The notes under the pieces: generated by a model
The model's database searches: none
Seen by the model: only the letters and a program-made list of their open reading frames with translations
What the model was told of the DNA's origin: nothing
Shown here: positions 13,584-62,275 of the stretch, one piece after another
Layout of the letters: the number at the start of each line of letters is the position of its first letter
How positions within the stretch are numbered: the first letter of the stretch is position 1
Assembly: GCA_963663035.1 (NCBI GenBank)
Contig: OY760074.1
Span: forward strand, 2,048,001 to 2,112,000
Direction of reading: 5' to 3'
DNA from: Acidobacteriota bacterium
Lineage (GTDB): Bacteria > Acidobacteriota > UBA6911 > RPQK01 > JADFOI01
DNA: 64,000 bases
Translations under genes and position numbers: made by a program

Positions 13584-13787
13584 CCCGGACTATGCATAGG
13601 TTCTCGTCACGAAGCGGTGAAAGCGCCGGCCTGACAAGGCGCGCGAGGGGTACCCGCCACGGGTCGGCCCCCGCAAACGTACTCTTGAGTAGGTTGAGGA
13701 GCCGAGGGGTACCCGCTTGCGGGTCGCGCAACACTGGCAGGGCGAGTGATTTCGGCGCTGCAGTAGAGAATTTATGCATAGTGCGGG
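13584..13787. mobile_element. IS1380-like MITE copy 1
   Basis: Ends CCCGGACTATGCATA / TATGCATAGTGCGGG; flanks CTAG/CTAA; the left flank is the stop codon of the HD-GYP gene. Confidence 0.85.
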
Positions 13788-13855
13788 CTAAACATCTCCC
13801 CAGTCATTCAGGCACCTGAAAAAGCTACCTTTCACTTTCGACGGAGCCTCCCATT

Positions 13856-14431
13856 TTGAGCCTTGGATCGCGCAAGAAAAAGTCCTCTTCCGAGGTGGCT
13901 GCTGCCGGACAGGAGTCACAAACCTTAATCGTGGTGGATGATGATGACGAGATCATCCAGTACGCTTCACGAACTCTTTGCCATCGGGGCAACGGTCTTC
14001 GCCACAGAGGGGTGGCCGTTTTTCTCTACAATAGTCAAGCTGAAGTGCTTCTGCAGAAAAGGAAGCACCAGCTCTTCGATAAGCTGTGGGATCTGGCCGG
14101 GGCCACCCATCCGCTCCACCTTGATGACAGAGACGAAAGCTACGAAGAAAGCGGAATCCGCTGCTTAAAAACCGAATGGGGAATAACACTGCCTTTACAC
14201 AAAGTTCTGGCATTTACCTATTTTGAACGGGACAACGATCGATGTGAAAACGAATCTTGTGCTCTTCTGACAGGTAAGTATGACGGAAAACTCAATCCTA
14301 ACCCACGTCACATCTACGACTTCAGGTGGGTCACCTGGAATCAACTTGCCCAGGAGCTCGATGGGGAGCCAAAAGGGTTCACACCGTGGCTGAGAAAGTC
14401 TGTTGAAGGCTTGAATGGAAGCCTATTTTGA
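13856..14431 (+). CDS. NUDIX protein, type-1 IPP isomerase-like
   Basis: LRHRGVAVFLYN, LLQKR, HP, ENE and FTPW motifs. Confidence 0.75.
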   Translation: MSLGSRKKKSSSEVAAAGQESQTLIVVDDDDEIIQYASRTLCHRGNGLRHRGVAVFLYNSQAEVLLQKRKHQLFDKLWDLAGATHPLHLDDRDESYEESGIRCLKTEWGITLPLHKVLAFTYFERDNDRCENESCALLTGKYDGKLNPNPRHIYDFRWVTWNQLAQELDGEPKGFTPWLRKSVEGLNGSLF

Positions 14432-14444
14432 AAAAACGCGGCAC

Positions 14445-14999
14445 TCAGGAGGTTGGCAGCAGACGGGACAGCCAGGAGTTTTCAAGGGTTGTTTCAAAAT
14501 CACCGGAGCGAAGCTGCCCCAGGGTACTCAGAAGGGTTTGGAAGACAGGGGTATCGGAACAGACTTCTCCCGACTCAACCAGATCCTGAAACTTGAGCGC
14601 ATCCAAGGCCTGAATCTTCCCCTCTCTGTCACGAAAGTAGAGAAGACCTCCCTTGAGACCATCCAATCCATTGAGAGTCTTGAAGGCTTTAAAGTTACGG
14701 AGGAGACTGTCGATAGAGCAGCCCGAGACACCCTCCTGGCAGTAGGCTGCAGTCACCACAAAACGCTCAGACAGAATCTTGAAGGCAGCCTGGACCGGGG
14801 CCCCGTGCGAAACCCATTGGGGTAGAAACTGCTCCAGTCCCTGGCGGATGATCTCCTCTTGAGGCCCAGTCAGCTCTTCTTGGAAACCGTGAACCCACAC
14901 CCGGGCCTGATCGGGAAGATCCTTGAACTCACTCCAGTCCACCTTCAACTCCCGATCCCCTTCGGCTGTTGCTTGTCCAGCCATGCCTTCAGCCTTCAT
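14445..14999 (-). CDS. Conserved hypothetical protein (WxSHG, SGCSIDS)
   Basis: Coherent ORF with RVWV, QWVSHGAPV, SGCSIDS and C-terminal ENSW; function not known to me. Confidence 0.7.
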   Translation of the reverse strand: MKAEGMAGQATAEGDRELKVDWSEFKDLPDQARVWVHGFQEELTGPQEEIIRQGLEQFLPQWVSHGAPVQAAFKILSERFVVTAAYCQEGVSGCSIDSLLRNFKAFKTLNGLDGLKGGLLYFRDREGKIQALDALKFQDLVESGEVCSDTPVFQTLLSTLGQLRSGDFETTLENSWLSRLLPTS

Positions 15000-15054
15000 T
15001 CAGTTCCTCACTGCTTTTTCGCATCCCAGTCACACTCCTATTGTACACAATTCG

Positions 15055-17310
15055 TTAAAGAACGGAGAAGCCTGCCTTCGTCAACGGAAGCTCTCGCACA
15101 CGATGACCGCTGGCGGCAAAGATCGCGTTGCAGATGGCCGGTGCAACCGGAGGTAGAGCGGGTTCACCAAGACCCGTGGGCGGGAAATCGCTTTCGATAA
15201 AGTGAACGTCAACCTCTGGCGCATTGGCCAGACGCAGGATTGGATATTGGTGGAAATTGGACTCCTGTACGCGCCCATTTTCTATTGAAAGCTCCAGACT
15301 CAGCATCGTGCTAAAGCCGTCGATAGCCGCACCCTGACACTGATTTTCCGCACCGCTTAGATTAATGATGGGACCGACATCGGCAGCTACCGTTACTTTA
15401 TGGACTGTCAGCTTTTTGTTCTCGTCTACACTCACCTCGGCAACTTCGGCGAAATGGCCGGCGTGACTAAAGTGGAAGGCCAGCCCCAGTCCCCGCCCGG
15501 CCGGGAACGATCTGCTCCAACCGGCTTTTTCTGCGGCAAGTCGAATAACGGCTGCGGCGCGACCGGTGTTCAGGGCACGGTCGTTTCCGGGATCCAGCCA
15601 ACGGGGCTGGCCCATCACTTCGAGGAGAAACTCAAGGTGATCGCGTCCAGCTGCCACCGCAAGCTCGTCAAGAAAGCATTGCACGGCAAAGGCAATTCCG
15701 TTTGAACGCGGTGCCCGCCATGGTCCGCAGGGCGTCGCCAGCGGCAACATGGTTTGAGTCAGTCGGTAGTTGGAAAGCAGAGGTCCGGGGAACTCCTCTT
15801 CGCCAATATTACCTCCGCTGACGGGACGTTGTCCGTCACTGGAGAAGGTCACGAAGTGATCCTGCCAGGCCGAAAGCTTGCCCGATCGATCGACTGCACC
15901 TTTGAAGGAATGGAAGCCCGCCACACGGTAAAAGTCGTGGGCCATATCGTCTTCGCGCGTCCATTGCAGTTTTACCGGTGCGTCAATCTGCTTCGAGATG
16001 GCCGCTGCTTCGCACATGGGATCATTCATTAAGCGGCGCCCGAAACCGCCGCCCACTCGGGTCTGGTGAATCGTTACCCGATCCTCGGGAATGCCGAGCA
16101 GTTTGGCCACGCTGCCAAGTCCCCGTTGGGGAGTCTGGGTGGGAGCCCAAATCTCGACCCCGCCCTCACGATACCAGGCCGTGCAGTTTTGGGGCTCAAG
16201 CGGCGCGTGTGAGAGAAATGGGTAGCTGTAGAAGGCGTCCACCGTTTTGGAGGCGCTGCTGAAGGCTTCCTCCAGGTTGCCAGTGTCGCTAATAATCTGG
16301 TTGCCGCTTTGATTGGCCAGCTCCCCGGCTCGTCGAACGGCACCACTCCAACTATCCTTGGAAGCCTGGCTTTCATCCCAGGTCACCCGAAGCTGACGTT
16401 TGGCGCTGAGAGCGGCCCAGGTGGAAGTCGCAACAATAGCGACTCCGGGCATCAGCTCTGCGACCTGCCCGTTGCCTTCCAGCACAAAGGCATCCTCGAC
16501 GCCAGGAAGCGAACGGATCTCGTCTAGATTGGCCTGGCCAACCCGGCCACCGGTGGCCGGGCATTTTTCATAGGCGGCATAGAGCATGCCCGGCACGACC
16601 TGATCGATTCCAAAAAGCGGTTGTCCGGTAACCACTTTGTGGTTATCGACGCCGCCTACCCGTGTGCCCAGCAGCTTGTAGTCTGAGCGCTCTTTCAGGG
16701 TGACAGATTGCGGGTCCGGAACCGGAAGCGCGGCTGCCCTGTTGGCCAGTTCGCCATACCCCAATCGCCGGCCACTCTGACGATGGATCACCGTACTCGT
16801 TTCTGTGGTGCACTCAGCAGTCGAAACACCCCATTCTTGGGCCGCAGCCGATACAAGCATGGCGCGGGCCACCCCGCCGGCGCGGCGCAGTTGATCCCAG
16901 CTCGAGGCCACGGATCGGGAGCCACCGGCAGACTGACGGCCATACACCGCTTGATTGATCGGTGACTGTTCCACACGCACGTCAGACCAGTCAGCGTCCA
17001 ACTCCTCGGCGACGATCATGGGCAGGGCAGTCATGACGCCCTGACCAATCTCGGGATTCTTCGAGTAGATCAGAATCGAGCCATCGGGTGATATGCGAAT
17101 GAAGGCGTTGGGGACGAACTCGCTTCCAGCCTGTGCGGCAAAAGCACTGCTCCCCCCTTCAATGTAGAAGGCAAGTGCCAGTCCCCCACCAGCCACTCCG
17201 GTCAGCTTCAGGAACGAGCGTCGACCTATGGCCTCCGCCCTGGTTTCAGCAGTTGTTTCAAACGCGGCTTCCGCCTCGCAGAGAACGTCATGAAGATATT
17301 CGTCATTCAT
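15055..17310 (-). CDS. Molybdopterin oxidoreductase, isoquinoline 1-oxidoreductase beta-like
   Basis: RRSFLK Tat motif, EIGQGVMT, AEELDADW, GGGFGRR, WTREDD and GLGEP. Confidence 0.9.
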   Translation of the reverse strand: MNDEYLHDVLCEAEAAFETTAETRAEAIGRRSFLKLTGVAGGGLALAFYIEGGSSAFAAQAGSEFVPNAFIRISPDGSILIYSKNPEIGQGVMTALPMIVAEELDADWSDVRVEQSPINQAVYGRQSAGGSRSVASSWDQLRRAGGVARAMLVSAAAQEWGVSTAECTTETSTVIHRQSGRRLGYGELANRAAALPVPDPQSVTLKERSDYKLLGTRVGGVDNHKVVTGQPLFGIDQVVPGMLYAAYEKCPATGGRVGQANLDEIRSLPGVEDAFVLEGNGQVAELMPGVAIVATSTWAALSAKRQLRVTWDESQASKDSWSGAVRRAGELANQSGNQIISDTGNLEEAFSSASKTVDAFYSYPFLSHAPLEPQNCTAWYREGGVEIWAPTQTPQRGLGSVAKLLGIPEDRVTIHQTRVGGGFGRRLMNDPMCEAAAISKQIDAPVKLQWTREDDMAHDFYRVAGFHSFKGAVDRSGKLSAWQDHFVTFSSDGQRPVSGGNIGEEEFPGPLLSNYRLTQTMLPLATPCGPWRAPRSNGIAFAVQCFLDELAVAAGRDHLEFLLEVMGQPRWLDPGNDRALNTGRAAAVIRLAAEKAGWSRSFPAGRGLGLAFHFSHAGHFAEVAEVSVDENKKLTVHKVTVAADVGPIINLSGAENQCQGAAIDGFSTMLSLELSIENGRVQESNFHQYPILRLANAPEVDVHFIESDFPPTGLGEPALPPVAPAICNAIFAASGHRVRELPLTKAGFSVL

Positions 17311-17528
17311 GGCCCAACCTCTTTCCTCGCTGGATTGATCTGTAAGTTTCTTAGCAGCAGTGTTTATCCCCTTGCGGAGGCATTTCCAGCGACCTCCTGA
17401 GAGCTTGAACTCAGTGTTGCACAGTCTCGGGCCAGAATCAATCGGGCGGTTTACCCATTCGATTTGGAACTCACGGACCCTATCGGTTGAACGAGCTTGC
17501 CCATAATCGATATACTCCCGTCCCTTCT

Positions 17529-18608
17529 ATGAAGATTGCTATTGTTGGACTGTCGAATAGCGGCAAAACGACGGTTTTTAATGCATTGACACGGGGAACG
17601 GCTGAGACCGCCTCCTTCACTTCGGGAAAGTTTGAGCCCAATCTGGCCTCGGTCAAGGTTCCCGATCCCAGGTTGGACGTATTGGCCGAGATTTACCAGC
17701 CGCGAAAGCTCACGGCAGCTGAAGTCCAATACGTGGATGTGACCGGCTTCAAGGGAGAGGAACAGGGGACAGAGCTGCCGGCCGAAGTCCTGGGTTATAT
17801 CGGAACGGCCGATGCTTTGCTTCACGTGGTCCGTGCCTTTGAGGACGAGAGGGTCCCCCATCCCTCAGGAGTAGTGAACCCTGAGGACGACCTGTCTGGA
17901 GTCGACTTTGAACTCATCTTTTCAGACCTCAGGATCATCGAGAAAAGGCGGGCACGGCTGGAGAAAGATCTGAAGAAGACTTCAGGCCAGGAGAAAAATA
18001 TTAAGATTGCCGAACAGGATCTCCTGTGCCGACTCAAGGAGAGCCTTGAGGCAGAGAAGCCGATTCGAGATCTGGAACTCTCCTCACAGGAGGAGAAGCT
18101 GATTCGAGGCTATCCACTCCTCTCAAAGAAGCCGGTCCTGGTGGTTTTGAATATCGGGGAAGAGCAGCTCTCCTCCCCCCCGCCCTTGGAATACAATCAC
18201 TCGAAAAGCTTGGTGGTGCCTCTCAGTGCCAAGATCGAGGAGGAATTGACCCAACTGGAGGAAAACGATGCCCGTGAATTCATGGGGAGTCTCAAAATTC
18301 AGGAACCCGCCAGAGATCGGGTCATCGCTTCATCCTACGCCTTGCTGGGACTGATTAGTTTTCTCACCGTCGGAGAAGATGAGGTGCGGGCCTGGACGAT
18401 TCGCCAGGGCGCCGTTGCCGTGGAGGCCGGAGGCGTCATCCATTCCGATATCGAGCGCGGATTCATTCGGGCAGAGGTCATTTCCTTTGAGGATCTGGTC
18501 AAATCCGGCAGTATGGCAAGCGCACGCAAGCAGGGTCTGTTGAGACTCGAGGGCCGCCAATACGTGCTCCAAGATGGAGATATTAGCAATTTTTTGTTTA
18601 ACGTCTGA
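17529..18608 (+). CDS. ychF: Redox-regulated ATPase YchF
   Basis: GLSNSGKTT, VPDPRLD, EVRAWTI, IHSDIERGFIRAE and RLEG motifs. Confidence 0.93.
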   Translation: MKIAIVGLSNSGKTTVFNALTRGTAETASFTSGKFEPNLASVKVPDPRLDVLAEIYQPRKLTAAEVQYVDVTGFKGEEQGTELPAEVLGYIGTADALLHVVRAFEDERVPHPSGVVNPEDDLSGVDFELIFSDLRIIEKRRARLEKDLKKTSGQEKNIKIAEQDLLCRLKESLEAEKPIRDLELSSQEEKLIRGYPLLSKKPVLVVLNIGEEQLSSPPPLEYNHSKSLVVPLSAKIEEELTQLEENDAREFMGSLKIQEPARDRVIASSYALLGLISFLTVGEDEVRAWTIRQGAVAVEAGGVIHSDIERGFIRAEVISFEDLVKSGSMASARKQGLLRLEGRQYVLQDGDISNFLFNV

Positions 18609-20019: not shown

Positions 20020-20036
20020 TCGGTCGCTCCCTATCG

Positions 20037-20552: not shown

Positions 20553-20617
20553 GAGTCTCTCCTCCTGACAGTTCTCTGGATGGTTTTAGAAATCGTCTGT
20601 AAGTTACTGAAACAAAA

Positions 20618-20695
20618 TGGTACGCCCGACAGGATTCGAACCTGTGACCTTTGGTTCCGGAGACCAACGCTCTATCCGTGCTGAGCTACGGGCGC
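20618..20695 (-). tRNA. tRNA-Arg(CCG)
   Basis: GCGCCCGTAGCTCAG...CTCCGGA...GGTTCGAATCC...ACCA. Confidence 0.96.
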
Positions 20696-23844: not shown

Positions 23845-25483
23845 CCCGGATTATTCATAAATTCTGAAGAAGGGGTCTGATCGAGGGCACAAAAAGATGC
23901 CGTACCTCTTTGATATAAAAGGGGTTATGAAACAACTCCAAACCAAAAAGGTACGGCCCAGCGATGCATCAGTCTGCCAGATCAACTTGCCATCTCACCC
24001 TGACAGAAAAGTGGTGGCTCGATTCGATGGAGGCCGGCTCTCCTCCGATGCCGGGCTGCTGTGTCTGTACGCCCTGGATCAACAGCACGGACTGACGGCT
24101 GGCTTTGCCTCCTGCCTGAAGGACGCTCGAGATAGCCGCTACGTCCGCCACCAGATTCGCGAACTGCTCACCCAGCGCAGCTTTCAGATCGTGGCCGGCT
24201 ATGAGGACTGCAACGATGCCGACAGCTTGCGCTCGGATCCCATCTTCAAGACCGTGTGTGATCGGCTGCCGGAAAGCGATCCGGATCTGGCTTCTCAACC
24301 CACGCTGTCGCGACTGGAGAACTCGGTGGACTCGAAGGATCTCACTCGCCTGGGACAGTGGCTGCTGGAGACCTACTTGAAGCACCGCAAGAAGAGCCGG
24401 CCCGAGAAGATCATCCTGGACATCGACAGCACGGATGACGTCACGCATGGGCAGCAGGAGTTCAGCTTTTACCACGGCTATTATCGCGAGCACATGTATC
24501 ATCCGCTGTTGCTATTCGATGGCGAGACGGGCGATCTGGTATGTGCGCTACTGCGGCCCGGCAACCAGGGGGCGGCCGCCCACGCGGTGGCGGTTCTCAA
24601 ACGGGTGGTGGCCCGGATGCGCCAGGTTCTGGGATCCGATGTTCCGATCGAAGTGCGAGCCGACAGTGGCTTTGCGACGCCGGCACTGTACGAGTTCTGT
24701 GAGGAGGAAAAACTGCAGTATGTGGTGGGCTTTGCCCGCAACTCCCGGCTGGCGGCCACCGTCGAGCCCTTGGTTGAGCAGGTGCAAGCAGACTATGACG
24801 ACTCAGGAGAAAAGCAACGCCAGTTCACCGAGCTCGTCTATCAGGCCGACAGTTGGGACCGGGAGCGGCGCATGGTGGCCAAGGTGGAAGTGAGCGAGCG
24901 CGGGTTCAACCGTCGCTTTGTGGTCACCAACCGCCAGGATCTCACGGCCGGGCAGCTGTATGACCACTACATCGGACGGGGCCAGTGCGAGAACTTCGTG
25001 AAAGCTTTCAAAAAAGATCTGGCCATGGATCGCTTGAGCTGCCACCGTTTCCTGGCCAACCAGTTCCGACTCTTCATCCACGCCCTGGCCTATGTCTTAA
25101 TCCTGCGCCTGCGGGATTACCTGTGCGGGACTCCCTGGCACAACCTGGAGATTGAGACGCTCCGCCGCCGCCTGTTCAAAATCGGTGCCCGGGTTCGGGA
25201 AACTTCTCGTCGCATCTGGGTGCACCTGGCATCGTCTTATCCCGAACAAAAGCTCTTCGCATTACTGATGCACCGTCTGTGTCCCACCTGACGGTCCCCT
25301 GACTCCCTGCGCCAACACAGATATACAGCCCCCTGCGGGCCGAGCTGTTTCCGGAAGGGGCTCTCGCTTCATCTCTATTCGGCTCAACAAGCTTGGACGC
25401 CTTGTAATCGCACCTGAACACACTCTCAGCCCTGAACTTCCGCAGAAAATCGACACTCACCCCAAACTTATGAATAATTGCGG
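23845..25483 (+). mobile_element. Full IS1380-family element, 1639 bp, CTAG target duplication
   Basis: IRs CCCGGATTATTCATAA / CCGCAATTATTCATAA; CTAG at 23841-44 and 25484-87. Confidence 0.95.
23897..25291 (+). CDS. IS1380 transposase (DDE)
   Basis: FDGGRLSSDAG, LASQPTLSRLEN, LDIDST, RADSGF and RGQCEN. Confidence 0.95.
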   Translation: MPYLFDIKGVMKQLQTKKVRPSDASVCQINLPSHPDRKVVARFDGGRLSSDAGLLCLYALDQQHGLTAGFASCLKDARDSRYVRHQIRELLTQRSFQIVAGYEDCNDADSLRSDPIFKTVCDRLPESDPDLASQPTLSRLENSVDSKDLTRLGQWLLETYLKHRKKSRPEKIILDIDSTDDVTHGQQEFSFYHGYYREHMYHPLLLFDGETGDLVCALLRPGNQGAAAHAVAVLKRVVARMRQVLGSDVPIEVRADSGFATPALYEFCEEEKLQYVVGFARNSRLAATVEPLVEQVQADYDDSGEKQRQFTELVYQADSWDRERRMVAKVEVSERGFNRRFVVTNRQDLTAGQLYDHYIGRGQCENFVKAFKKDLAMDRLSCHRFLANQFRLFIHALAYVLILRLRDYLCGTPWHNLEIETLRRRLFKIGARVRETSRRIWVHLASSYPEQKLFALLMHRLCPT

Positions 25484-25595: not shown

Positions 25596-26741
25596 ATGCT
25601 GAAGAATCCGATTAGAATCCGATTTGACAGGAATGAGTTCGCAGGCGCGTTTGGCGATATCGGCACCGATTTCCCTCTGATTATTGCCATGATACTGGCA
25701 GCCGGTTTGGACAGCACCAGTGCATTGGTCATGTTCGGCACGATGCAAATCCTCACGGCCCTGATCTATAGGATGCCTATGCCTGTCCAGCCTCTCAAAG
25801 CCATGGCTGCCATCGTCATCACGCAAGAAATCAGTGGAGATATTTTGTACGGGGGCGGCTTGGCAATTGGGGTTCTTATGTTCATGCTCACCGTAACGAA
25901 ACTCATTGACCTGTTGGCTAAAGTTGTACCCAAGTGCGTAATTAGAGGGATACAATTTGGCTTAGGCATCAAGCTTTCCTTACTGGCATTAGGCGACTAT
26001 GTGGCCTCCGAGGGTACCTACGGTTACTGGCTGGCAGCTGTAGCGTTTATCTTGACCGTTGTTCTTCTGGGAAACCGGAAATTCCCAGCTGCCCTGTTCG
26101 TGATCGCTTTAGGTATCACTTACGCCTTTATCTTCAATGTTGATAGCACTGACTTAGTCGCAAGCGTGGGCATTCGATTGCCGCAATTGCATGTACCTGA
26201 GTGGGCGGACATTCTCACAGGCTTTGTTCTTTTGGCCATACCCCAAATCCCACTTTCTCTTGGCAATTCGGTCCTGGCCACCAAACAAGTGTCTGACGAT
26301 CTGTTCCCGGATAGAAAATCTCTCACGGTGCGCAAGATCAGTTTTACCTATTCCTTCATGAATTTGATCAACCCTCTCTTCAGCGGGATACCCACTTGTC
26401 ACGGCTCAGGAGGAATGGCGGGACACTATACCTTCGGCGGCAGAACGGGCGGCTCAGTAGTCATTTACGGATCGATGTATCTCTTTGTAGGACTTTTCCT
26501 CAGCAAGGGATTCGAGACTGTCATTCATATCTTCCCTTTGCCGGTATTGGGAGTGATACTTCTATTTGAAGGGATTGCCTTAATGTTATTCATCAGGGAT
26601 ATCGTGCCATCGAAATCGGAGTTCAGTATCGCTAGCCTGGTTGCCCTGATGGCAGGTGGCTTAGCCTACGGCTTTGTCGTGGGACTGTTAGTGGGCACCT
26701 CGTTGTATTACTTGTCCAAAAGAGGAATGGTAGGAGTCTAG
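25596..26741 (+). CDS. Putative molybdate/sulfate transporter (MOT1-like)
   Basis: GAFGDIGT, PMPVQPLKA and PTCHGSGGMAGHYTFGGRTG. Confidence 0.88.
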   Translation: MLKNPIRIRFDRNEFAGAFGDIGTDFPLIIAMILAAGLDSTSALVMFGTMQILTALIYRMPMPVQPLKAMAAIVITQEISGDILYGGGLAIGVLMFMLTVTKLIDLLAKVVPKCVIRGIQFGLGIKLSLLALGDYVASEGTYGYWLAAVAFILTVVLLGNRKFPAALFVIALGITYAFIFNVDSTDLVASVGIRLPQLHVPEWADILTGFVLLAIPQIPLSLGNSVLATKQVSDDLFPDRKSLTVRKISFTYSFMNLINPLFSGIPTCHGSGGMAGHYTFGGRTGGSVVIYGSMYLFVGLFLSKGFETVIHIFPLPVLGVILLFEGIALMLFIRDIVPSKSEFSIASLVALMAGGLAYGFVVGLLVGTSLYYLSKRGMVGV

Positions 26742-26948
26742 CCGGGATTATGCAGAAATTTTCTACTGCAGTGCCGCAATCATCCACGCTGACTGCGTTA
26801 TGCGACCCGCAAGCGGGTACCCCTTGGGCTCCTCGGCGTACTGCATGAGTACGCCTGCGGGGCCCGACCCGCAGGCGGGTACCCCTCGCATGCCTTGTCA
26901 TCGCAGCGCCAGCGGCACTTCATCACGAAAACCTATGCATCATCCCGG
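26742..26948. mobile_element. IS1380-like MITE copy 2
   Basis: Ends CCGGGATTATGCA / TGCATCATCCCGG; CTAG duplication; the left copy is the transporter stop codon. Confidence 0.88.
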
Positions 26949-27024
26949 CTAGCCGCAGACAGTTTTGATGAACTGCTCTGGCTGCGAATCATCAGAGCAA
27001 GGGACGGTCGTTATCTGGTGAGAG

Positions 27025-32321: not shown

Positions 32322-32397
<76 letters not shown>

Positions 32398-36413: not shown

Positions 36414-36490
36414 TGGGGTGGGCGACGGGACTCGAACCCGCGGCCACAGGGGCCACAACCCTGTGCTCTACCTACTGAGCTACGCCCACC
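36414..36490 (-). tRNA. tRNA-His(GTG)
   Basis: GGTGGGCGTAGCTCAG...TTGTGGC...GGTTCGAGTCC...CCCA, including G-1. Confidence 0.95.
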
Positions 36491-47012: not shown

Positions 47013-47717
47013 ATGAGTGCAGACACGAGCAGCGTTACTTTAACCTTTAATCTCCTCTCCTCGGCCGGGTCGCAGACCGCCCAGTTTTCCATCAGCGAGA
47101 CCGTCATCGCAGGATGGACGGGTCGGGACTCAGAGGCCGTCGAGAAGCACATTCGTGAGCTGGAAAAACTGGGAATACAGCGTCCGGCCTCGACGCCGAT
47201 CTTCTACCGGGTCGCCGCTGTCCGCCTGACCACCGCCGGAGAGATTCAAGTGGTGGGTGAAAGATCCAGCGGTGAGGTGGAGGTCGTCCTTCTACAGCAA
47301 GATGGGCAACTCTGGGTGGGGGTCGGATCCGATCACACTGACCGCGAAGTCGAGACCTATGGAGTCACGGTTTCGAAGCAGGTCTGTGACAAGCCCGTGG
47401 CCCCCGACCTCTGGCCCTACGCTGAGGTGGAGAAGCACTGGGACCAGCTGGCTCTCCGCTCATACGCTCTTGTGGGAGACAAAAAGGAGCTGTATCAGGA
47501 GGGGACGGTCGCCTCCTTACTTCCACCGAGTGATCTCATGGCACGCTACACCGAAGGCGAGAGTCTTTCGGACGGCACCCTGATGTTCGGTGGAACCCTG
47601 ACCACCCTGGGTGAAGTGCAGCCCTCCCGGAGGTTTGAGTTCGAATTGGAAGACCCGGTCCTCCAGCGACGGATCACCCACGGCTACGATGTCCTGACCC
47701 TTCCCATTTTGGGCTAA
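47013..47717 (+). CDS. DUF2848 family protein
   Basis: IAGWTGRD, HIREL, SSGEVE, SDHTDR and SKQVCDKP. Confidence 0.85.
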   Translation: MSADTSSVTLTFNLLSSAGSQTAQFSISETVIAGWTGRDSEAVEKHIRELEKLGIQRPASTPIFYRVAAVRLTTAGEIQVVGERSSGEVEVVLLQQDGQLWVGVGSDHTDREVETYGVTVSKQVCDKPVAPDLWPYAEVEKHWDQLALRSYALVGDKKELYQEGTVASLLPPSDLMARYTEGESLSDGTLMFGGTLTTLGEVQPSRRFEFELEDPVLQRRITHGYDVLTLPILG

Positions 47718-47718
47718 G

Positions 47719-47909
47719 CCCGCATTATGCATAGGTTTTCGTAGCGAAGTGGCGCAAGCGCCGCGATGACAAGGCGTGCGACCCGCAAGCGGGTACCCCA
47801 AGCGCCCCGCAGGCGTACTCGTGCAGTACGCCGAGGAGCGCAAGGCAGCACAACGCCGGCAGCGCGGATGATTGCGACGCTGTAGCAGAAAATTTATGCG
47901 TAATGCGGG
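47719..47909. mobile_element. IS1380-like MITE copy 3
   Basis: Ends CCCGCATTATGCATA / TATGCGTAATGCGGG; the duplicated CTAAG carries the stops of both convergent genes. Confidence 0.9.
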
Positions 47910-48290
47910 CTAAGGGGGATCGTAGTAGTGGGTCTCGAGGAGGAGACAGCCATCCACCGACTTGAAGGGACCATGGAAGGCCCCCGGGGGTCGGCACGCG
48001 TAAGTCCCGGGGGGGAAGGACTCCCCCCCTTCCCCCTGCTCGTCATTGCCCACAATCAATTCTCCGGAGAGGAGATAGACCTCCTCCCAATACTCGTGAA
48101 CGAAAGGCGCTGTTGTGAAGACACCAGGATGGAAACGTAGAAGCCGGGTCCGACTGCCACATTTGTTCTCCTCATCGAGATGACCCGAGAGAATCTTCTG
48201 CTGGATACCACTTGGATACCCCAGCGGCACCTCCCATCCCTCCTCCATGTTCACAGTGTGGAACTCCAGATGCTCCCTCTCGATAGCCAT
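47910..48290 (-). CDS. ChrR-like cupin protein
   Basis: HEYWEEVY and YACRPPGAFHGPF. Confidence 0.85.
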   Translation of the reverse strand: MAIEREHLEFHTVNMEEGWEVPLGYPSGIQQKILSGHLDEENKCGSRTRLLRFHPGVFTTAPFVHEYWEEVYLLSGELIVGNDEQGEGGESFPPGTYACRPPGAFHGPFKSVDGCLLLETHYYDPP

Positions 48291-55863: not shown

Positions 55864-55973
55864 GATGTCCCTGCTAGGTTGATGCCCCGTCGCCACAAGA
55901 TACTCGGAAGCAAATCGACAGTCAACAACCTGACTCACGAGTCTTTTCTATCGACTAAATCGATCAAAAAACC

Positions 55974-56122: not shown

Positions 56123-56141
56123 TTTTTTTTATCTTTTTCTC

Positions 56142-56169
56142 TTGTTTCCGGTTCGCAACTGGATAGAAT
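56142..56169 (+). promoter_or_regulatory. Putative sigma70 promoter of the ncRNA candidate
   Basis: TTGTTT-16-TAGAAT, ending 7 nt before the terminal stem, with a T-rich tract upstream. Confidence 0.55.
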
Positions 56170-56175
56170 TAGAAC

Positions 56176-56614
56176 TGTCCCAAGGGGTAAACGCAATGAG
56201 CCGAAACCCTGAGGCGGCGACCCCGAGTCGGAAAGATCTGCTATCAGGCTTCGGTCGAAGTAGCAGGGAAGCCAGCAAGGGGGGGAAGCCGAAACCTACT
56301 TGCTTCGGTAAGGGGGGGAACGGTTGAACCGGACCGAGAGGAAAACCGGTTTTCTTCGGAAAGCAGGGAGCATACTTCGGGACGGGACGTAGCCGGGAAC
56401 TTCCATTTTGATGGGATTCTCGAAAGAGAAAAGTCAAGGTGGGAAGGGCGGCCCGCTTTCTGGGTTGTCAGTTGCGCTCTTCGGAGTGTAGCCGGCGGTT
56501 TGGGGGTGTGGGTCAACCACTTGAGAAGCTGAGAAACCGATTTTTAACGAGGTCGGGAAAGAGGGCTTCCCAAGCCATCAGATTTGGCTCTCTCTGCGGA
56601 TATCACTTGGGACA
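56176..56614 (+). ncRNA. Large structured non-coding RNA candidate, family unknown
   Basis: 5' and 3' ends pair; nested long-range helices; several cUUCGg and GNRA loops; many G-U pairs; T-rich tail; no credible ORF. Confidence 0.8.
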
Positions 56615-56643
56615 TTTATTTATCCTCTCTTTTTCTTTATTAG

Positions 56644-56853
56644 CCCGCATTATCCATAAATTTTCTGCTGCAGTGTCGCAATCATCCACGCTGACGACGT
56701 TGTGCGACCCGCAAAGCGGGTACCCCTTGCGCTCCTCGACGTACTGCAAGAGTACGTCTGCGCGGGGCGCGACCCGCAAGCGGGTACCCCTCACACGCCT
56801 TGTCATCGCGGCGCTTGCACCACTTCGCTAAGAAAACCTATGGGAAATGCGGG
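56644..56853. mobile_element. IS1380-like MITE copy 4
   Basis: Ends CCCGCATTATCCATA / TATGGGAAATGCGGG; flanks TTAG/CTAG; the right flank is the lipoprotein stop. Confidence 0.88.
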
Positions 56854-57342
56854 CTAGTCCACCTTCTGATAGACGTACCTGAACTCAGGGGATCCGGCTG
56901 GAGCAATGAAGAGCTGGTCTTCCTCCTGGCTAAAGATAAATTCAGAGGTGGTGCCGTCACGGTCGGGGTTCAGTGTGGAAGTCCAGGTCGCTGTCACTAT
57001 CTCTCCCTCAAGGGTAAAGGTTCCGCAGGCAGAGTTGGCAGCAGTGAAGGCTGCAGCTGCCTTTCTCATTGCCTCCTCGTCAGACTCGTCCTGGACGAAG
57101 TTCTCTCGCTCTTTATCGACGCGCAGATGGCACAGAGAGCCATCCTGAACAATCATTAGGCCTTTCTGGGTTGAGCTCGGCCCATTGGGAGAATCCAGGC
57201 GAAGCAGTTGGTAGACCCCATTGTACCGTTCGACACTTGACTCGGCTTGGGGAGTCACTTCGGTGGCGGTGGCGGCTCCTCCGCTGCAAGCCATTACAGC
57301 CATAGCACTGCTGAGAGACAACAAAGCCATCAGGTTCTTCAT
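56854..57342 (-). CDS. Hypothetical lipoprotein (lipocalin-like possible)
   Basis: Lipobox VMAC; GVYQL strand; GAGGAGG RBS. Confidence 0.75.
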   Translation of the reverse strand: MKNLMALLSLSSAMAVMACSGGAATATEVTPQAESSVERYNGVYQLLRLDSPNGPSSTQKGLMIVQDGSLCHLRVDKERENFVQDESDEEAMRKAAAAFTAANSACGTFTLEGEIVTATWTSTLNPDRDGTTSEFIFSQEEDQLFIAPAGSPEFRYVYQKVD

Positions 57343-57430
57343 ACGATCCTCCTCTTGACACTAATCAACATTTTCATGCTATCGTGCGCCAGAGGAGTTT
57401 AAATGGTTGCAGCTTGCAGGTCAACCCTAG

Positions 57431-57621
57431 CCCGAATTATGCATAGGTTTTCGTAGCGAAGTGGCGCAGGCGCCGCAATGACAAGGCGTGTGAGGGGTAC
57501 CCGCTTGCGGGTCGCGCCCCGCAGACGTACTCCTGCAGTACGTCGAGGAGCGCAAGGAAACACAACGCCGACAGAGCGGATGATTGCGACACTGTAGCAG
57601 AAAATTTATGCATAATATGGG
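57431..57621. mobile_element. IS1380-like MITE copy 5
   Basis: Ends CCCGAATTATGCATA / TATGCATAATATGGG; CTAG duplication. Confidence 0.9.
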
Positions 57622-57654
57622 CTAGTAGGTGCAAAAGACTGGAGAGGCAGATAA

Positions 57655-58704
57655 GTGGAAAAGATCCCGGTAGGAATTTTAGGTGCCACTGGGGCGGTAG
57701 GACAGAAGTTCATTCTGCTCTTGACTGATCATCCCTGGTTTGAACTCCGGGAGTTGGCCGCCTCCGAGCAATCATCAGGAAATCGATATCAAGATGTCGT
57801 CTCCTGGAGACAGGCGAGTCCGATTCCGGAAACCATCCGAGAAATGATGGTCAAAGACTGCGAACCGAATCTCGACTGTAAGATTGTTTTTTCTGGTCTG
57901 GATTCCTCAGTGGCCGGAAACATTGAAGAGTCTTTCGCCCAAGCGGGATACTGGGTGTTTTCCAATGCCATGAATCACCGCATGGATCCCGATGTTCCGC
58001 TGGTGATCACGGAGCTCAACCCTGAGCACCTGAACATCATTCCCCACCAGCAGAAGACTCGAGGCTGGGAGGGGGCCATCCTCACCAACGCCAATTGCTC
58101 CGCGATTGTCCTGGCTCTCTCGCTTGGACCACTTCACAAGAGGTTCGGACTGGAGACTGTCCATGCGGTAACTTTCCAAGCGGTCTCGGGTGCCGGCTAT
58201 CCCGGTGTCCCCTCACTGGACATCCTGGGAAACGTCATTCCCTTTATTCCTGGAGAAGAAGAAAAGATGGAAAGTGAGACCCGAAAGATCTTAGGTGTAC
58301 TGGATCAGGATCGGTTTCGTCCGGCCGCTTTCACAGTCAGCACTCATGCGAATCGAGTGCCGGTTGAGGAGGGTCACCTGGAATGTGTTTCGGTCAAGCT
58401 GAAGGAGAAGGCTCCGCTGGAAGAAGTGATTCGATGCTGGCAGGAATTTACTGGACCAGATCATGAATTGAAGCTTCCCTCAGCCCCCCAGCACCCTGTG
58501 GTGGTGGTTTCAGAAGAGGATGGTCCCCAACCTCGCCGAGACGTCTGGAAATACCAGGGGATGAGTGCTCTGATAGGGCGTGTCCGCCCCTGTCCACTTT
58601 TTGACATCAAGTATGTTGTGCTCGGACATAACACCATCCGGGGAGCCGCCGGAGCCTCAGTGCTCAATGCGGAGTTGGTCCTCAAGAAAGGGATGTTGGA
58701 GTAG
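57655..58704 (+). CDS. asd: Aspartate-semialdehyde dehydrogenase
   Basis: GATGAVGQ, NANCS, QAVSGAG and HNTIRGAAG. Confidence 0.95.
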   Translation: MEKIPVGILGATGAVGQKFILLLTDHPWFELRELAASEQSSGNRYQDVVSWRQASPIPETIREMMVKDCEPNLDCKIVFSGLDSSVAGNIEESFAQAGYWVFSNAMNHRMDPDVPLVITELNPEHLNIIPHQQKTRGWEGAILTNANCSAIVLALSLGPLHKRFGLETVHAVTFQAVSGAGYPGVPSLDILGNVIPFIPGEEEKMESETRKILGVLDQDRFRPAAFTVSTHANRVPVEEGHLECVSVKLKEKAPLEEVIRCWQEFTGPDHELKLPSAPQHPVVVVSEEDGPQPRRDVWKYQGMSALIGRVRPCPLFDIKYVVLGHNTIRGAAGASVLNAELVLKKGMLE

Positions 58705-58709
58705 GCCCC

Positions 58710-59405
58710 ATGCGAATTACCCTTATAGGCTACGGCAAGATGGGAAGAAAGGTAGAGGAGGTGAGCCGTGACCAAGGCCACGAAGTTGTCCACACGATCG
58801 ATATCGACAACCTTGCCTCTGAAGCCGGATTCTCAGGAGAATGGGTCAAGATGACTGATGTCCTCATCGATTTTTCCACAGCAGCTACCGTGGTGACGAA
58901 TGTCCAGAATGCCGCCCGCGCGAAGATTCCCATAGTGGAAGGGACCACTGGTTGGAATGAACAGTTGAAGAAGGTTCAGCAGATCGTGGAGAGCCAGGGT
59001 GGAACCTGCGTCTATTCCAGCAACTTCAGTATGGGGGTTCAGAGTCTCTTCCACCTGACACGACAGGCTGGGAAGCTGCTTTCTCGTTTTGAAGATTTCC
59101 ATCCCTTTATCGTGGAATCTCATCACACTCAGAAGATCGATGCACCCTCGGGCACGGCACTGACATTGCGCAAAATTCTCGAGGAATCGTACAGCTCAGA
59201 GGTACCCACTTCGAGCCTGCGGGTTGGTTTTATCCCCGGAAACCACCTTGTGGGCTTTGACTCTCCCTTTGATACTCTGACGCTGGAGCACAGGGCGCGA
59301 AGCCGGGAGGGCTTTGCTAGAGGAGCGCTCTTTGCTGCCCAGTGGGTCCAGGGTAAAACAGGCTTGTATCGCTTCGAAGACGTCCTTTTCGGTGAAGAAA
59401 CATGA
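58710..59405 (+). CDS. dapB: 4-hydroxy-tetrahydrodipicolinate reductase
   Basis: GYGKMG, GTTG and ESHHTQKIDAPSGTA. Confidence 0.95.
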   Translation: MRITLIGYGKMGRKVEEVSRDQGHEVVHTIDIDNLASEAGFSGEWVKMTDVLIDFSTAATVVTNVQNAARAKIPIVEGTTGWNEQLKKVQQIVESQGGTCVYSSNFSMGVQSLFHLTRQAGKLLSRFEDFHPFIVESHHTQKIDAPSGTALTLRKILEESYSSEVPTSSLRVGFIPGNHLVGFDSPFDTLTLEHRARSREGFARGALFAAQWVQGKTGLYRFEDVLFGEET

Positions 59406-60295
59406 TCAATACAACCGGTTGTGGCACAGCTTTAGTGACCCCTTTTCAATCCAATAACGAGGTCGACCTGGAAACCTATCGGAAACTGGTCCGGTGGCAG
59501 ATCGATTCGGGGATCAACTTCCTGGTTCCCGTGGGAACTACCGGGGAGAGCGTCACCCTCAGTGAAGAGGAATACCGGGATGTGATTCGAACCTGTGTGG
59601 AAACAGTGGCAGGCAAAGTTCCAGTCGTGGCAGGTGCTGGCACCAACAACACGGCCCATGCGATCCACCTGGCTGGCATCGCCCAGGAGCAGGGGGCCGA
59701 CGCTCTGCTTGCAGTAACTCCCTACTACAACAAACCCACCCAGGAAGGTCTTCTTCGTCACTTCCAGAAGATTGCCGAGTCAATCGAAATTCCGGTCATT
59801 CTCTACAACGTTCCAGGGCGCACCGTGACCAATATCACGGTAGAAACTGCGCTTCGGTTGGCACAGATCGATAATATTATCGGCATCAAAGAAGCCAGTG
59901 GAGATCTCAGTCAAGTTATGCAGATTCTGGATCACCGTCCTCCAGGATTCCTGGTTCTGTCGGGAGACGACAGTCTCGCCCTGGCCATTACACTGTTGGG
60001 TGGGGAGGGCATCATTTCAGTGGCCAGCAATTTGATTCCTGCCGAAATGACTCGAATCATCGATCTGGCCCGCCGTGAAGAGTTGGAGGAGGCTCGGAAA
60101 CTTCATTATCACTACCTCTCCTTAATGGAACTCAACTTCATTGAAACGAGCCCTATCCCTGTGAAATATGCGCTTTCCCGCATGGGCAAGCTTGAAGAGG
60201 TCTACCGGCTCCCCCTGTGTCCGCTCAGCGAAGCGAGTAAAGGAAGGATGGATCAAGAGCTGCAGAAGCTCAACCTGGTGAGTCCCCGTGGTTGA
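59402..60295 (+). CDS. dapA: 4-hydroxy-tetrahydrodipicolinate synthase
   Basis: GTTGES, PYYNKP, YNVPGRT and IKEASG. Confidence 0.96.
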   Translation: MINTTGCGTALVTPFQSNNEVDLETYRKLVRWQIDSGINFLVPVGTTGESVTLSEEEYRDVIRTCVETVAGKVPVVAGAGTNNTAHAIHLAGIAQEQGADALLAVTPYYNKPTQEGLLRHFQKIAESIEIPVILYNVPGRTVTNITVETALRLAQIDNIIGIKEASGDLSQVMQILDHRPPGFLVLSGDDSLALAITLLGGEGIISVASNLIPAEMTRIIDLARREELEEARKLHYHYLSLMELNFIETSPIPVKYALSRMGKLEEVYRLPLCPLSEASKGRMDQELQKLNLVSPRG

Positions 60296-61106
60296 GACGA
60301 TTGAGAAACTCTTTGAGAAGGACGAGTTTGACGGGACCGACAGGAGCACTCTGGAATCCTTTCTGGATCAATTGGACAGTGGGGAAATTCGTGCAGCCGA
60401 GAGAGTCGATGGTCAGTGGACAACCAATACCTGGGTCAAAAAGGGGATCCTGGTCGGATTCCGGATGGGAGTGCTGGCAGATCGATCCATCGATGAGCAT
60501 TTCCGTTTTTTTGATAAAGACACCTTTCCACTGAAGTCGCTTCAACTGGACTCGGGGGTCCGTATAGTTCCCGGGGGGTCCGCGGTGCGGCGCGGAGCCT
60601 ATGTCGCTGCAGGTGTCACCTGTATGCCACCCATGTATATCAATGTCGGTGCTTACGTGGATGAGGGGACCATGGTTGATTCCCATGCCCTGGTCGGATC
60701 GTGTGCCCAGGTCGGGAAACGCGTTCATCTAAGCGCCGCTGCACAGATTGGGGGAGTCCTGGAACCTGTGGGAGCGCTTCCCGTGATCGTTGAAGACGAG
60801 GTCCTGGTGGGAGGCAATTGTGGAGTCTATGAAGGGACGATTGTGCGCCGCGGAGCGGTGCTGGCAGCAGGGGTCATTTTGACTCGCGGAACCCCGGTTC
60901 ATGATCTCACCAAGGAAACAGTGCTCCGAGGTGAGGAAGAGCGCCCTCTCGAAATTCCCGAGGGTGCCGTGGTCGTCCCCGGCAGCCGTCCAATCTCTTC
61001 CAGCTATGGCAAGGCTCAGGGACTCTCCCTGTACACTCCAATCATCGTGAAGTACAGGGACTGGAAAACCGAGAAGTCAGTCAAGCTGGAAGAGTGGCTC
61101 AGGTAG
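60288..61106 (+). CDS. dapD: Tetrahydrodipicolinate N-succinyltransferase
   Basis: WVKKGIL, GAYVDEGTMVD, GSCAQ and IGGVLEP. Confidence 0.95.
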   Translation: MVETIEKLFEKDEFDGTDRSTLESFLDQLDSGEIRAAERVDGQWTTNTWVKKGILVGFRMGVLADRSIDEHFRFFDKDTFPLKSLQLDSGVRIVPGGSAVRRGAYVAAGVTCMPPMYINVGAYVDEGTMVDSHALVGSCAQVGKRVHLSAAAQIGGVLEPVGALPVIVEDEVLVGGNCGVYEGTIVRRGAVLAAGVILTRGTPVHDLTKETVLRGEEERPLEIPEGAVVVPGSRPISSSYGKAQGLSLYTPIIVKYRDWKTEKSVKLEEWLR

Positions 61107-61228
61107 GAGAGAGAAGGTAGGAGACAGGAGGCAGAAGCGTCACAGGGACTACGTCCTCTGCTAAGCTCCAAGTCGAAAGCTTAACTCCCTCTCCATTCTG
61201 ACTCCTGACTCCTACCTCCTGACTCCTA
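61102..61228. repeat. Degenerate heptamer arrays in inverted arrangement (AGGAG-rich / CTCCT-rich)
   Basis: GTAGGAGACAGGAGGCAG on the left and (ACTCCTG/ACTCCTA/CCTCCTG)n on the right. Confidence 0.7.
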
Positions 61229-61249
61229 TTCCCAAGTGTTATCATAGAT

Positions 61250-62080
61250 GTGAGAATGGCAGCTGAAAAGGGGCCAAGCAAGCGAAGGCCGATTATCACC
61301 CTGATCACGGATTTTGGGGAGGGATATTACGTCGCTGCAATGAAGGGGGTCATCCTTGACATCTGCCAGGACGCCTGCATTGTGGACATCAGTCATGATA
61401 TTCGATCTCATGACGTGCTGGAGGGTGCCTTCACCCTTCTTTGCAGTTACCCGTACTTTCCCCCCAAGAGTGTTCACGTCGCAGTAATCGACCCAGGGGT
61501 GGGCTCAGAGCGTCGCGGAATTATCGTGTCAACCAACGATCATTACTTCGTGGGCCCTGATAATGGTGTCTTTTCCTTCGTCTACAATCGAGAGCAGGTC
61601 AAGAAAGTTGTTTCTATCGAGTCCCAACTCTACCAGCGAGGCACAGTTTCTCCCACCTTTCATGGTCGTGATGCGTTTAGTCCGGTGGCCGCATGGCTGG
61701 CGCTGGGAACCCCGCTCGAGAAGTTTGGCCAGGAGATCGAAGATTATGCGGGTGCCACTGTTCTGCCTGTTCAGAAAGTGGAAGAAAATCGACTTGAAGG
61801 CATGGTCATTCACGTGGACAAATTCGGCAACGTCATCACCAGCATCTCTCGAGACAATGCCTCACAGCTCCTCGGGAATGAGGGCACCCCGAAGTTCTAC
61901 CTCAATGGCCAGGAGGTGACTCACCACTACAGCTTTTACGCTGAAGCCGCCCCAGGAGAGATCTTCACCCTTATAGGCAGCAGCGGCTATTATGAGATTG
62001 CGGCACACAAAGAGAGGGCTGCTGATATCTTGGGCGTGGCGCGCGGGGAAAGGGTTCAATTGGAGCTGGTGACAGACTAA
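61250..62080 (+). CDS. SAM hydroxide adenosyltransferase / chlorinase-like (DUF62)
   Basis: TDFG, IDPGVGSERR, GPDNG, TFHGRD and DKFGN. Confidence 0.9.
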   Translation: MRMAAEKGPSKRRPIITLITDFGEGYYVAAMKGVILDICQDACIVDISHDIRSHDVLEGAFTLLCSYPYFPPKSVHVAVIDPGVGSERRGIIVSTNDHYFVGPDNGVFSFVYNREQVKKVVSIESQLYQRGTVSPTFHGRDAFSPVAAWLALGTPLEKFGQEIEDYAGATVLPVQKVEENRLEGMVIHVDKFGNVITSISRDNASQLLGNEGTPKFYLNGQEVTHHYSFYAEAAPGEIFTLIGSSGYYEIAAHKERAADILGVARGERVQLELVTD

Positions 62081-62275
62081 CCGCATTTCTCACACCCGCT
62101 CTGCTGCAGCGGCGCAATGATCCGACCTGCCTGCGTTGCGCGACCCGCAAGCGGGTACCCCTCGCGCGCCAGTCGGAGCCGCAGGCTAAAGCCTGCGGGC
62201 CCGTGGGCTAAAGCCCACGGCTCTGTTTTCCGGCCCTTTCGCCGCTTCGCGACGACCTGGTGTAAGAAATGCGGG
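62081..62275. mobile_element. IS1380-like MITE copy 6 (divergent, with REP-like hairpins)
   Basis: Ends CCGCATTTCTCACACC / GGTGTAAGAAATGCGGG; the duplicated CTAA carries the stops of both convergent genes. Confidence 0.82.

Follow-up and report, generated by a model that had tools for sequence, protein, structure and literature searches.

A 21-nt hairpin element, here called E (GGGGYACCCGCTTGCGGGTCG), resides within MITEs (miniature inverted-repeat transposable elements) of an Acidobacteriota bacterium and recurs letter for letter in genomes of other phyla. We analyzed it starting from a 64,000-nt stretch of that bacterium's genome (the window; GenBank assembly GCA_963663035.1, contig OY760074.1, positions 2,048,001 to 2,112,000 of the forward strand), in which a first-pass annotation, made from the letters alone, had described a hairpin micro-element parasitising a MITE. 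As that annotation held, E can be separated from its carrier: MITEs without E exist in sister genera, the 21-mer exists outside MITEs, and genes that contain E have orthologues that lack it. We consider it probable, though well short of certain, that E is a separate element which entered the MITE in an ancestor of the genus, has since then been a passenger only, and was inserted, as a best guess, by an activity acting in trans.

The E family in other phyla

One genome per prokaryote species was scanned for the exact 21-mer, which was found in at least 104 stretches. The 80 loci listed represent at least 8 named phyla. By label, 28 of them belong to Planctomycetota, 22 to Acidobacteriota, 9 to Thermodesulfobacteriota, 8 to 'Deltaproteobacteria' and 5 to Chloroflexota, with one each from Abditibacteriota, Caldifarciminota (WOR-3), Cyanobacteriota and Saccharimonadota and four unlabelled. 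One listed locus was left out because of a short flank; among the 79 analyzed, 59 lie in unrelated non-MITE contexts and 20 in MITE contexts of Acidobacteria. To count copies within genomes, we used the pattern GGGGYACCC-N6-GGGTCG, whose matches are mostly the canonical 21-mer. It occurs 120 times in the 11.4-Mb genome of a Planctomycete (G045), 6 times in a cyanobacterium, 5 times in a member of the Blastocatellia, and once each in a Saccharibacteria genome of 0.8 Mb and a WOR-3 genome, with no match to the reversed control. The wider frame GGGGYACCC-N3-12-GGGTCG gave 309 matches in the Planctomycete, 21 in the Blastocatellia genome, 18 in the cyanobacterium, and 7 and 2 in the Saccharibacteria genomes G095 and G096, and its reversed control gave none in any genome searched; the 0.8-Mb Saccharibacteria and the WOR-3 genomes were counted with the N6 pattern only. 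By a back-of-envelope estimate, chance would produce between a few and a few tens of matches over the entire collection. The 104 or more stretches, the 120 N6 copies in a single genome and the empty reversed controls led us to reject chance as the source of the matches between phyla.

The frame defines a family rather than a single sequence. Its members carry alternative loops or inner stems, including GGTACTCC, GTTCCGAC and GCGCAGC, and the minimal form is 18 nt long with a YYT loop; both CCGG/CCGG and CCGT../..ACGG inner stems are found within one and the same frame. A compensatory stem change, from ACCCGC/GCGGGT to ACCCAC/GTGGGT, is present in both G045 and the window's own genome (G000), as seen by inspection of the pairs. 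The base preceding E is C in 53 of the 59 non-MITE contexts and the second base before it is a pyrimidine in 44 of the 59, so that the unit is probably 22-23 nt long. The unit of E is (C)GGGGYACCCGCTTGCGGGTCG, set within a pan-phylum frame GGGGYACCC...GGGTCG with a variable loop or inner stem. No target sequence shared across phyla was seen in the 59 non-MITE contexts. Complementarity between their flanks exceeds the control only slightly (2.4-2.7 of 8 positions, control 2.15), which indicates that hairpin tips are a frequent but not an exclusive home of E. Copies in other phyla are mostly single, with a few inverted pairs in G045; pairs of E ~1.1 kb apart in that genome were considered as an autonomous form and dismissed, two such pairs having only E in common.

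Outside the window's own genome, E was also found in frame within conserved genes, in either orientation. In a metagenome-assembled genome (MAG) of the Thermosynechococcaceae, it lies in the N-terminal part of leuS (tRNA-synt_1, Pfam), at a place where none of eight aligned relatives of the same family has the insertion (4 nt there, 22 here). An Aminotran_5 (cysteine-desulfurase-like) gene of a Saccharibacteria MAG also contains it; here 2 of 8 orthologues are filled, with the sequence ..A(Q/K)-RPASGYP-EI.. where the other six have ..A(K/Q/D)-(P/A)(N/S)-EII.., PN being replaced by RPASGYP. The two filled orthologues (L097 of G042 and L163 of G095) carry E at the same codon position, and E is identical at 20 of 21 positions where the genes are 75% identical, a pattern suggestive of recurrent insertion at a single place or else of maintenance at the nucleotide level. 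Further in-frame copies were found in an FGGY_C sugar kinase and in a Usp-Usp linker (Pfam), and in a GluQRS-like gene that scored under the Pfam cut-off. Misbinned Acidobacteriota DNA is an unlikely source of the non-MITE copies, because their flanks are those of a cyanobacterial leuS and of AT-rich Saccharibacteria genes.

Other repeats host E as well. A REP-like palindrome of the Planctomycete (TAGGGTGGGAC.AGATCGCGTAGCGAGCGCCGGCCCACC; REP, repetitive extragenic palindrome) has 49 matches, in 6 of which a frame element replaces the tip GCGTA, always in a single orientation. At seven loci from Planctomycetia (L027, L039, L041, L046, L049, L060 and L100), E is nested within the loop of a second frame element (GGGGYAC.C[E]CGGGTCGG), and at L058, L090, L071 and L062 it lies between the units of heptamer-type or other short tandem direct repeats.

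E and its carrier MITE in the window, its genome and relatives

The window belongs to a single contig of 3,594,683 bp with 54.4% G+C and holds six copies of the carrier MITE, a repeat of 200-215 bp here. The MITE consists of a left arm (L), site 1, a central hairpin M of ~43 nt, site 2 and a right arm (R). From its long-hairpin fold and this order of parts, both E sites lie at the tip of the fold-back. The MITE copies and the elements in them are as follows (E', loop variant of E).

13580..13791, +: MITE copy 1 (L-E'-M-E-R), CTAG/CTAA flanks
13647..13667, +: E' loop variant GGGGTACCCGCCACGGGTCGG (GGGGTACCCGCCACGGGT at 13647), site 1 of copy 1; 31 copies genome-wide
13706..13726, +: canonical 21-nt E, site 2 of copy 1
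26738..26952, -: MITE copy 2 (L-E-M-E-R), CTAG flanks
26803..26823, -: canonical E, site 2 of copy 2 (MITE on the - strand)
26865..26885, -: E with one loop mismatch (CCTG), site 1 of copy 2
47714..47913, +: MITE copy 3 (L-inverted E-M-filler-R); the site is without a MITE in G003-G006
47779..47799, -: E inverted relative to its + strand MITE, site 1 of copy 3
~47847-47851: empty site 2 of copy 3, GGCAG
56640..56857, -: MITE copy 4 (L-E-M-E-R), one long hairpin with E-M-E at the tip (-65.1 kcal/mol, z -7.95)
56705..56726, -: E variant whose loop is longer by one base (CTTTG), site 2 of copy 4; 10 copies genome-wide
56770..56790, -: canonical E, site 1 of copy 4
57427..57625, +: MITE copy 5 (L-E-M-filler-R), CTAG flanks
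57494..57514, +: canonical E, site 1 of copy 5
~57557-57561: empty site 2 of copy 5, GGAAA
62077..62279, -: MITE copy 6, second terminal-repeat type (GCCCGCATTTCTCACAC), extra left-arm hairpin modules, single E
62141..62161, -: canonical E, sole site of copy 6

The core 18-mer of E (GGGGTACCCGCTTGCGGG) has seven matches in the window at up to 2 mismatches, six of them exact (13706+, 26806-, 47782-, 56773-, 57494+ and 62144-) and one with a single mismatch (26868-), and 100 shuffled windows yielded no match in any. The first-pass annotation had counted nine places, of which those at 13647 and 56708 turned out to be family variants instead. The stem ACCCGC/GCGGGT that it reported is present, but E by itself folds like its shuffles (z -0.05), and the TCG of the supposed 'TCGC-like' right flank is part of E itself, accompanying it in all other phyla. 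The reported occupancy of site 2 was correct, with E in copies 1, 2 and 4 and with GGCAG and GGAAA in copies 3 and 5. Site 1 is inverted as described, copy 3 carrying the reverse complement of the element in copy 5; since M keeps its direction in copy 3, the inversion is local. The sixth MITE differs from the others in its type of terminal repeat. With these small corrections the original observation is sound, and a separate micro-element parasitising the MITE is supported. The analogy with SDR5, a cyanobacterial small dispersed repeat (SDR) that inserts into the palindrome HIP1, fails in detail, because the genome is not cyanobacterial and HIP1 (GCGATCGC) is not enriched in it; at 45 occurrences in G000 against ~55 expected, HIP1 was rejected as the insertion target.

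Across G000, the 18-mer occurs 141 times exactly and 182 times at up to 2 mismatches, and the canonical 21-mer has 138 copies. When counted inside and outside MITEs, all 141 exact 18-mers fell in MITE loci of at least 100 bp, as did 230 of 231 matches to the frame with N3-12 (reversed control, 0); the lone frame match outside MITEs is compatible with chance. E therefore probably multiplies in this genome as a passenger, and the independent mobility that had been proposed for it is not supported as an ongoing process here, the inverted state too being inherited (see below).

A BLAST search with the six MITE copies gave 259 loci in G000, 195 of them of at least 100 bp. Five of these were not orientable, and the other 190 comprised 90 long forms, 86 short L-E-R forms and 14 unparsed loci. 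In the 90 long forms, site 1 holds canonical E in 46, a CCAC-loop variant in 30, a filler in 11 and inverted E in 3; site 2 holds canonical E in 66 and a filler in 24, with no entry for the loop variant or inverted E. The fillers, of 5-6 nt, differ between MITE subfamilies, one subfamily having CGAAG and GGAAG/GGAAA and the other having CGGAGG/CAGAGG and CCGAG/CTGAG/TCGAG, and they are not derivable from E by deletion. Each short form (147-bp L-E-R) carries one E and would be the expected product of recombination between two direct E copies, direct being the orientation of E copies within a MITE. Deletion junctions with TGCG and CGCG microhomology were also found among the MITEs.

E varies far less than its surroundings. 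At site 2 the mean consensus frequency of E is 0.988, against 0.89, 0.86, 0.82 and 0.74 in four flanking 30-nt segments (n = 63); E was picked with a regular expression in which 14 of the 21 positions are fixed and which misses 3 of the 66 filled copies. E is likewise constant across MITE subfamilies with different fillers and across the two terminal-repeat types. At site 2 of one MITE (G000:406421-406665), a tandem pair was observed, GGGGTACCCGCTTGCGGGTCG followed by GGGGCACCCACTTGTGGGTCG, the second member of which bears a compensatory stem change. The 21-mer lies on the lagging-strand side in 89 of 140 G000 copies, with the origin placed at ~3.20 Mb and the terminus at ~1.22 Mb from cumulative GC skew; copies within one MITE are not independent in this count, and gene orientation is uncontrolled.

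Related genomes contain the MITE without E. The 21-mer (up to 1 mismatch) was present in all six other genomes of the genus. Elsewhere in the family, 2 of 8 genomes from three further genera had it, and elsewhere in the order, with 15 further families represented, 0 of 26 genomes did. From two sister genera, the E-less genomes G013, G008 and G011 gave 41, 29 and 25 MITE matches, and two family genomes without E (G007 and G012) gave zero. Twelve MITE loci were fetched from G013, G008 and G011; none contained a frame element, and 9 of 9 parsed copies read ...GCGCGA-CCGAGG-[M]-...GCCGA-CCGAG-CGCAAC.... The filler state is therefore general, E is an addition, and CGA|CCGAG is common to both sites. 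Because both sites share this motif, the earlier description of E as sequence-targeted is plausible locally, but it does not extend across phyla, where no common target was found.

The two inverted site 1 copies in window copy 3 and at G000:3488249 are mutual best matches (93% identity), and the same lineage, with inverted E (e), M and filler in the order e-M-filler, is also found at two other places in a sister species (G002). The inverted state is thus inherited by a transposing MITE lineage and involves no recurring flip. A second inverted lineage occurs in the other MITE subfamily and in relatives (G000:413259 and 3533322; L033, L075 and L088). The inverted copy at L075 resembles a clean 17-nt addition beside a near-intact filler (GA-C[...]GGAGG), in contrast to direct E copies, which replace the filler.

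Site states were mapped on a tree of the MITE backbone (FastTree, sites masked, ~150 nt). Site 1 required 34 changes (shuffle mean 37.3, minimum 31) and its state agreed between nearest neighbours in 40 of 90 cases; site 2 required 16 changes (shuffle mean 21.6, minimum 17), with agreement in 65 of 90. The median identity of nearest-neighbour backbones was 92.5%. The states are thus barely structured, which argues against a single ancestral event per site, although change counts from a ~150-nt backbone and FastTree overstate the number of events. The scattered states are compatible with continuing turnover or with exchange between MITE copies. One ancestral event with E in no other context, the outcome by which the first-pass annotation would have been overturned, does not describe these scattered states or the presence of the 21-mer in other phyla. 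MITE insertions are lineage-specific among the same-genus genomes compared (the G002 MITEs C218 and C23, orthologous-looking, lie at other places), and short-read contigs break at MITEs, which precluded a comparison of orthologous MITEs. Among four sequencing runs, three with a word share of 0.95-0.97 yielded contigs with 0-3 differences from the window, all ending at MITEs.

The carrier has the features of an IS1380-family MITE: it is non-coding, 140-260 bp long and multicopy, with CTAG-type flanks and terminal inverted repeats like the end of the insertion sequence (IS). We found 114 terminal-repeat pairs, whose lengths cluster at ~147, 190-210 and 250-260 bp and which are flanked by CTAG-like tetramers (..CTAG/CTAA). 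The end of the IS1380-family IS, CCGCAATTATTCATAAGTTT|CTAG, resembles the MITE terminal repeat. About 30 copies of its transposase in G000 have an equal profile score, and five that were compared are identical over ~1.6 kb. This IS family probably drives the MITE and not E.

24017..25237, +: transposase of an IS1380-family IS; ~30 copies in G000
7685-8203, -: partial copy of an IS1380-family transposase gene
20621-20695, 32325-32397 and 36417-36489, all -: three tRNA genes

Some further features of the MITE were noted. Positions 4-6 of the terminal repeat vary among copies genome-wide (GGG, CGC, CGG, CAC, CTC, GTG and others) and stay complementary between both ends within each MITE, as in 47718-47733 with 47894-47909. 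GCCGTGGGCTTTAGCCCACGG and CCCGCAGGCTAAAGCCTGCGG are optional left-arm hairpin modules that also occur outside MITEs (62160-62215; G000:2440249-2440433), and a copy of CCCGCAGGCTAAAGCCTGCGG with 1 mismatch was found in a WOR-3 genome. MITE hairpin modules other than E were considered as pan-phylum elements and rejected, GCCGTGGGCTTTAGCCCACGG being found in 0 of 5 distant genomes and CCGCAGGCTAAAGCCTGCGG giving one 1-mismatch match.

Candidate movers and competing explanations

No mover of E was found among the Y1_Tnp loci and viral contigs examined. G000 has two Y1_Tnp genes (IS200-like or REP-associated tyrosine transposase, RAYT). The RAYT at 346384-346728 (-) has REPs of a different family of its own on its flanks (GGAGCCCCGAAGGGGC...AGCCCAGGGC...). 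The second Y1-like gene (249 aa, 2324722-2325042, +) lies between two ~50-bp copies of the 3' end of the upstream gene. No Y1_Tnp match was obtained in G005, where the 21-mer is matched 38 times (up to 1 mismatch), or in G095, with at least 7 frame copies, an absence that MAG incompleteness weakens. Across 7 genomes, 12 Y1_Tnp loci were inspected with flanks of up to ~1.5 kb per side and less at contig ends, and frame elements were absent from all of them. No link thus emerged between E and a co-distributed RAYT, for which the first-pass annotation had proposed to look, and RAYT as the mover is unsupported. Viral contigs contained the 21-mer at a single locus, and therefore no phage link is apparent. 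In Rfam no family matches E, the only hits being at chance level or to three tRNAs. Searches of the literature by sub-string and by word returned no description of the family, most supplements and part of PubMed Central (PMC) lying outside the search, and a prior description may exist.

E copies sit where 3-6 loop nucleotides of an existing hairpin, or a short stretch of a gene, were replaced. We conclude that E entered the IS1380-type MITE in an ancestor of the genus, at two CGA|CCGAG spots that flank the central hairpin at the tip, and at site 1 at least twice in the opposite orientation. In G000 E would since have multiplied solely through transposition of the MITE, and the differences between MITE copies may reflect a limited number of old insertions, deletions through E-E recombination or microhomology, and shuffling between copies. 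As a best guess, the inserter is a horizontally spread activity, not encoded beside E, which acts in trans on the loops of single-stranded hairpins. Loop replacement, a fixed frame with a free loop, self-nesting and the preference for tips together suggest a frame-recognising, single-stranded DNA activity at hairpin loops; an RNA intermediate or templated repair is also possible as the route of E.

Several observations weigh against this explanation. No candidate mover emerged from the loci above, and a search of six genomes of the same genus for the sites occupied by window copies 3, 4 and 5 did not reveal any insertion in progress. At filled sites E takes the place of other nucleotides (5 to 21, 4 to 22 and 6 to 21 nt) and is not cleanly inserted, an outcome that no transposition chemistry known so far would predict. 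The near-perfect conservation of E, at 20/21 against 75% gene identity, may mean selection for a function, and a handful of old events accounts for the near-unstructured site states less well than gene conversion or frequent turnover does. The last point is the starting point of another explanation, by which E is still active in G000, through turnover at MITE loop sites or gene conversion between copies, with MITE loops as the only suitable targets. Near neighbours, at 93-95% identity, are found in different states, E does not vary among diverged subfamilies or between the two terminal-repeat types, rare variants (+TG and +T) recur in different subfamilies, and the CGA|CCGAG target is common to both sites. 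The backbone tree behind the scattered states is weak, however, and slippage can also generate the +T and +TG variants; moreover, no copy lies outside MITEs despite abundant hairpins, a candidate enzyme was not found, and the contigs with 0-3 differences show no polymorphism, though they break at MITEs. We regard continuing activity in G000 as unlikely.

Selection without mobility could also account for a letter-for-letter match between phyla and between orthologues with 25% gene divergence, if E were a structured motif useful to the host, such as a protein binding site or an RNA hairpin, spread by transfer or convergence. The compensatory stem variants in two phyla (ACCCAC/GTGGGT) and the likeness of a fixed frame with variable loop to a protein recognition site fit this idea, but a host motif is hard to reconcile with in-frame copies of either orientation in unrelated housekeeping genes, with nesting of E in its own loop, with a patchy spread (in the order, 15 sibling families with 26 genomes lack it), with the lack of an Rfam match or with a hairpin that alone is not unusually stable, and we judge it quite improbable. 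Less probable still, and already largely refuted, is the notion that E is an original module of the MITE, with empty sites arising by hairpin-stimulated deletion and the inversion by quasi-palindrome template switching. Every G000 copy does lie in a MITE, deletions are indeed seen both at 4-nt microhomologies and between E copies in direct orientation, and the inverted state is inherited and not recurrent. Yet the fillers are underivable from E and are the sole state in sister genera that have the MITE and lack E, the exact 21-mer stands in the 59 non-MITE contexts of other phyla among the listed loci, and E is far less diverged than its flanks.

Our preferred explanation, a separate element inserted in trans and carried by the MITE, has a bolder extension that we put forward tentatively, as one that may well prove wrong: the frame family would be a set of horizontally spreading mobile DNAs, the smallest known (18-23 nt), active in at least 8 phyla, written into hairpin loops and genes by trans-acting machinery and kept letter-perfect by homing-like re-copying. 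If true, such re-copying would explain the orthologous insertions that are identical at 20 of 21 positions within a 75% identical gene. E is too small to encode anything, yet it is letter-identical from Saccharibacteria to Planctomycetes, inside essential genes as well as mobile elements. If mobile, it points to an unrecognised and widely shared insertion activity on hairpin loops, for which the frame offers a concrete sequence handle in a co-occurrence hunt, and it implies that internal variation of MITEs can stem from a second layer of parasitism. For annotation, E accounts for 7-residue inserts in conserved proteins and for the modular look of these MITEs.

Comparison with known repeat families

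The CTAG-flanked MITEs of the IS1380 family are the vehicle of E only, given that other phyla have E and no such MITE, and that sister genera have the MITE and no E. In its residence within genes, E recalls the Rickettsia palindromic elements (RPEs) reportedly described by Ogata et al. in 2000, said to be ~100-150 bp long and confined to Rickettsiales. RPEs are likewise palindromic and selfish-looking, and lie in frame in housekeeping genes, where they add a short peptide loop; E differs in being 21 nt (7 codons) long and pan-phylum. The hallmark of an RPE, an in-frame insertion absent from orthologues, was observed for E in leuS (0 of 8 relatives) and in Aminotran_5 (6 of 8 orthologues lack it).

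In size and habit E resembles the SDRs, of which Elhai et al. reportedly described SDR1-8 of Nostocaceae, 21-27 nt long, in 2008; an RNA intermediate is said to have been proposed for them. The two are alike in length (21-27 nt for SDRs, 18-27 for E), in forming hairpins with compensatory changes, in having no known mover, in lying within mini-transposons, heptamer tandem repeats and their own copies, and in their presence or absence at homologous sites. SDRs are reported solely from Nostocaceae (PMC5861425), whereas E is letter-identical in at least 8 named phyla among the listed loci. SDR5 sits precisely within HIP1 (PMC5861425, PMC4390886), in contrast to E, which replaces 3-6 nt and for which HIP1 plays no role. 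E further differs from the described SDRs in lying in frame within conserved genes.

REPs provide the other close comparison. Super-families of REPs tagged GTAG or CGTC span several phyla, some members lie in palindrome tips or in genes, and the CGTC type is without a known transposase (Di Nocera et al. 2013; PMC3733652); no E string occurs in four supplementary text files of that paper. The REP/REPIN elements of Bertels and Rainey (2011; PMC3116915) were used as a further comparison. E shares with REPs a short palindrome, a conserved unpaired tag, a variable stem or loop and a multi-phylum distribution. REPINs are head-to-head inverted doublets associated with RAYTs, whereas E is mostly single or in direct orientation and shows no RAYT association. 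REPs have a GTAG or CGTC tag and a stem of 6-13 bp; E, in contrast, has a 5' GGGGY, a 3' CG (...GGGTCG) and a stem of 4-6 bp.

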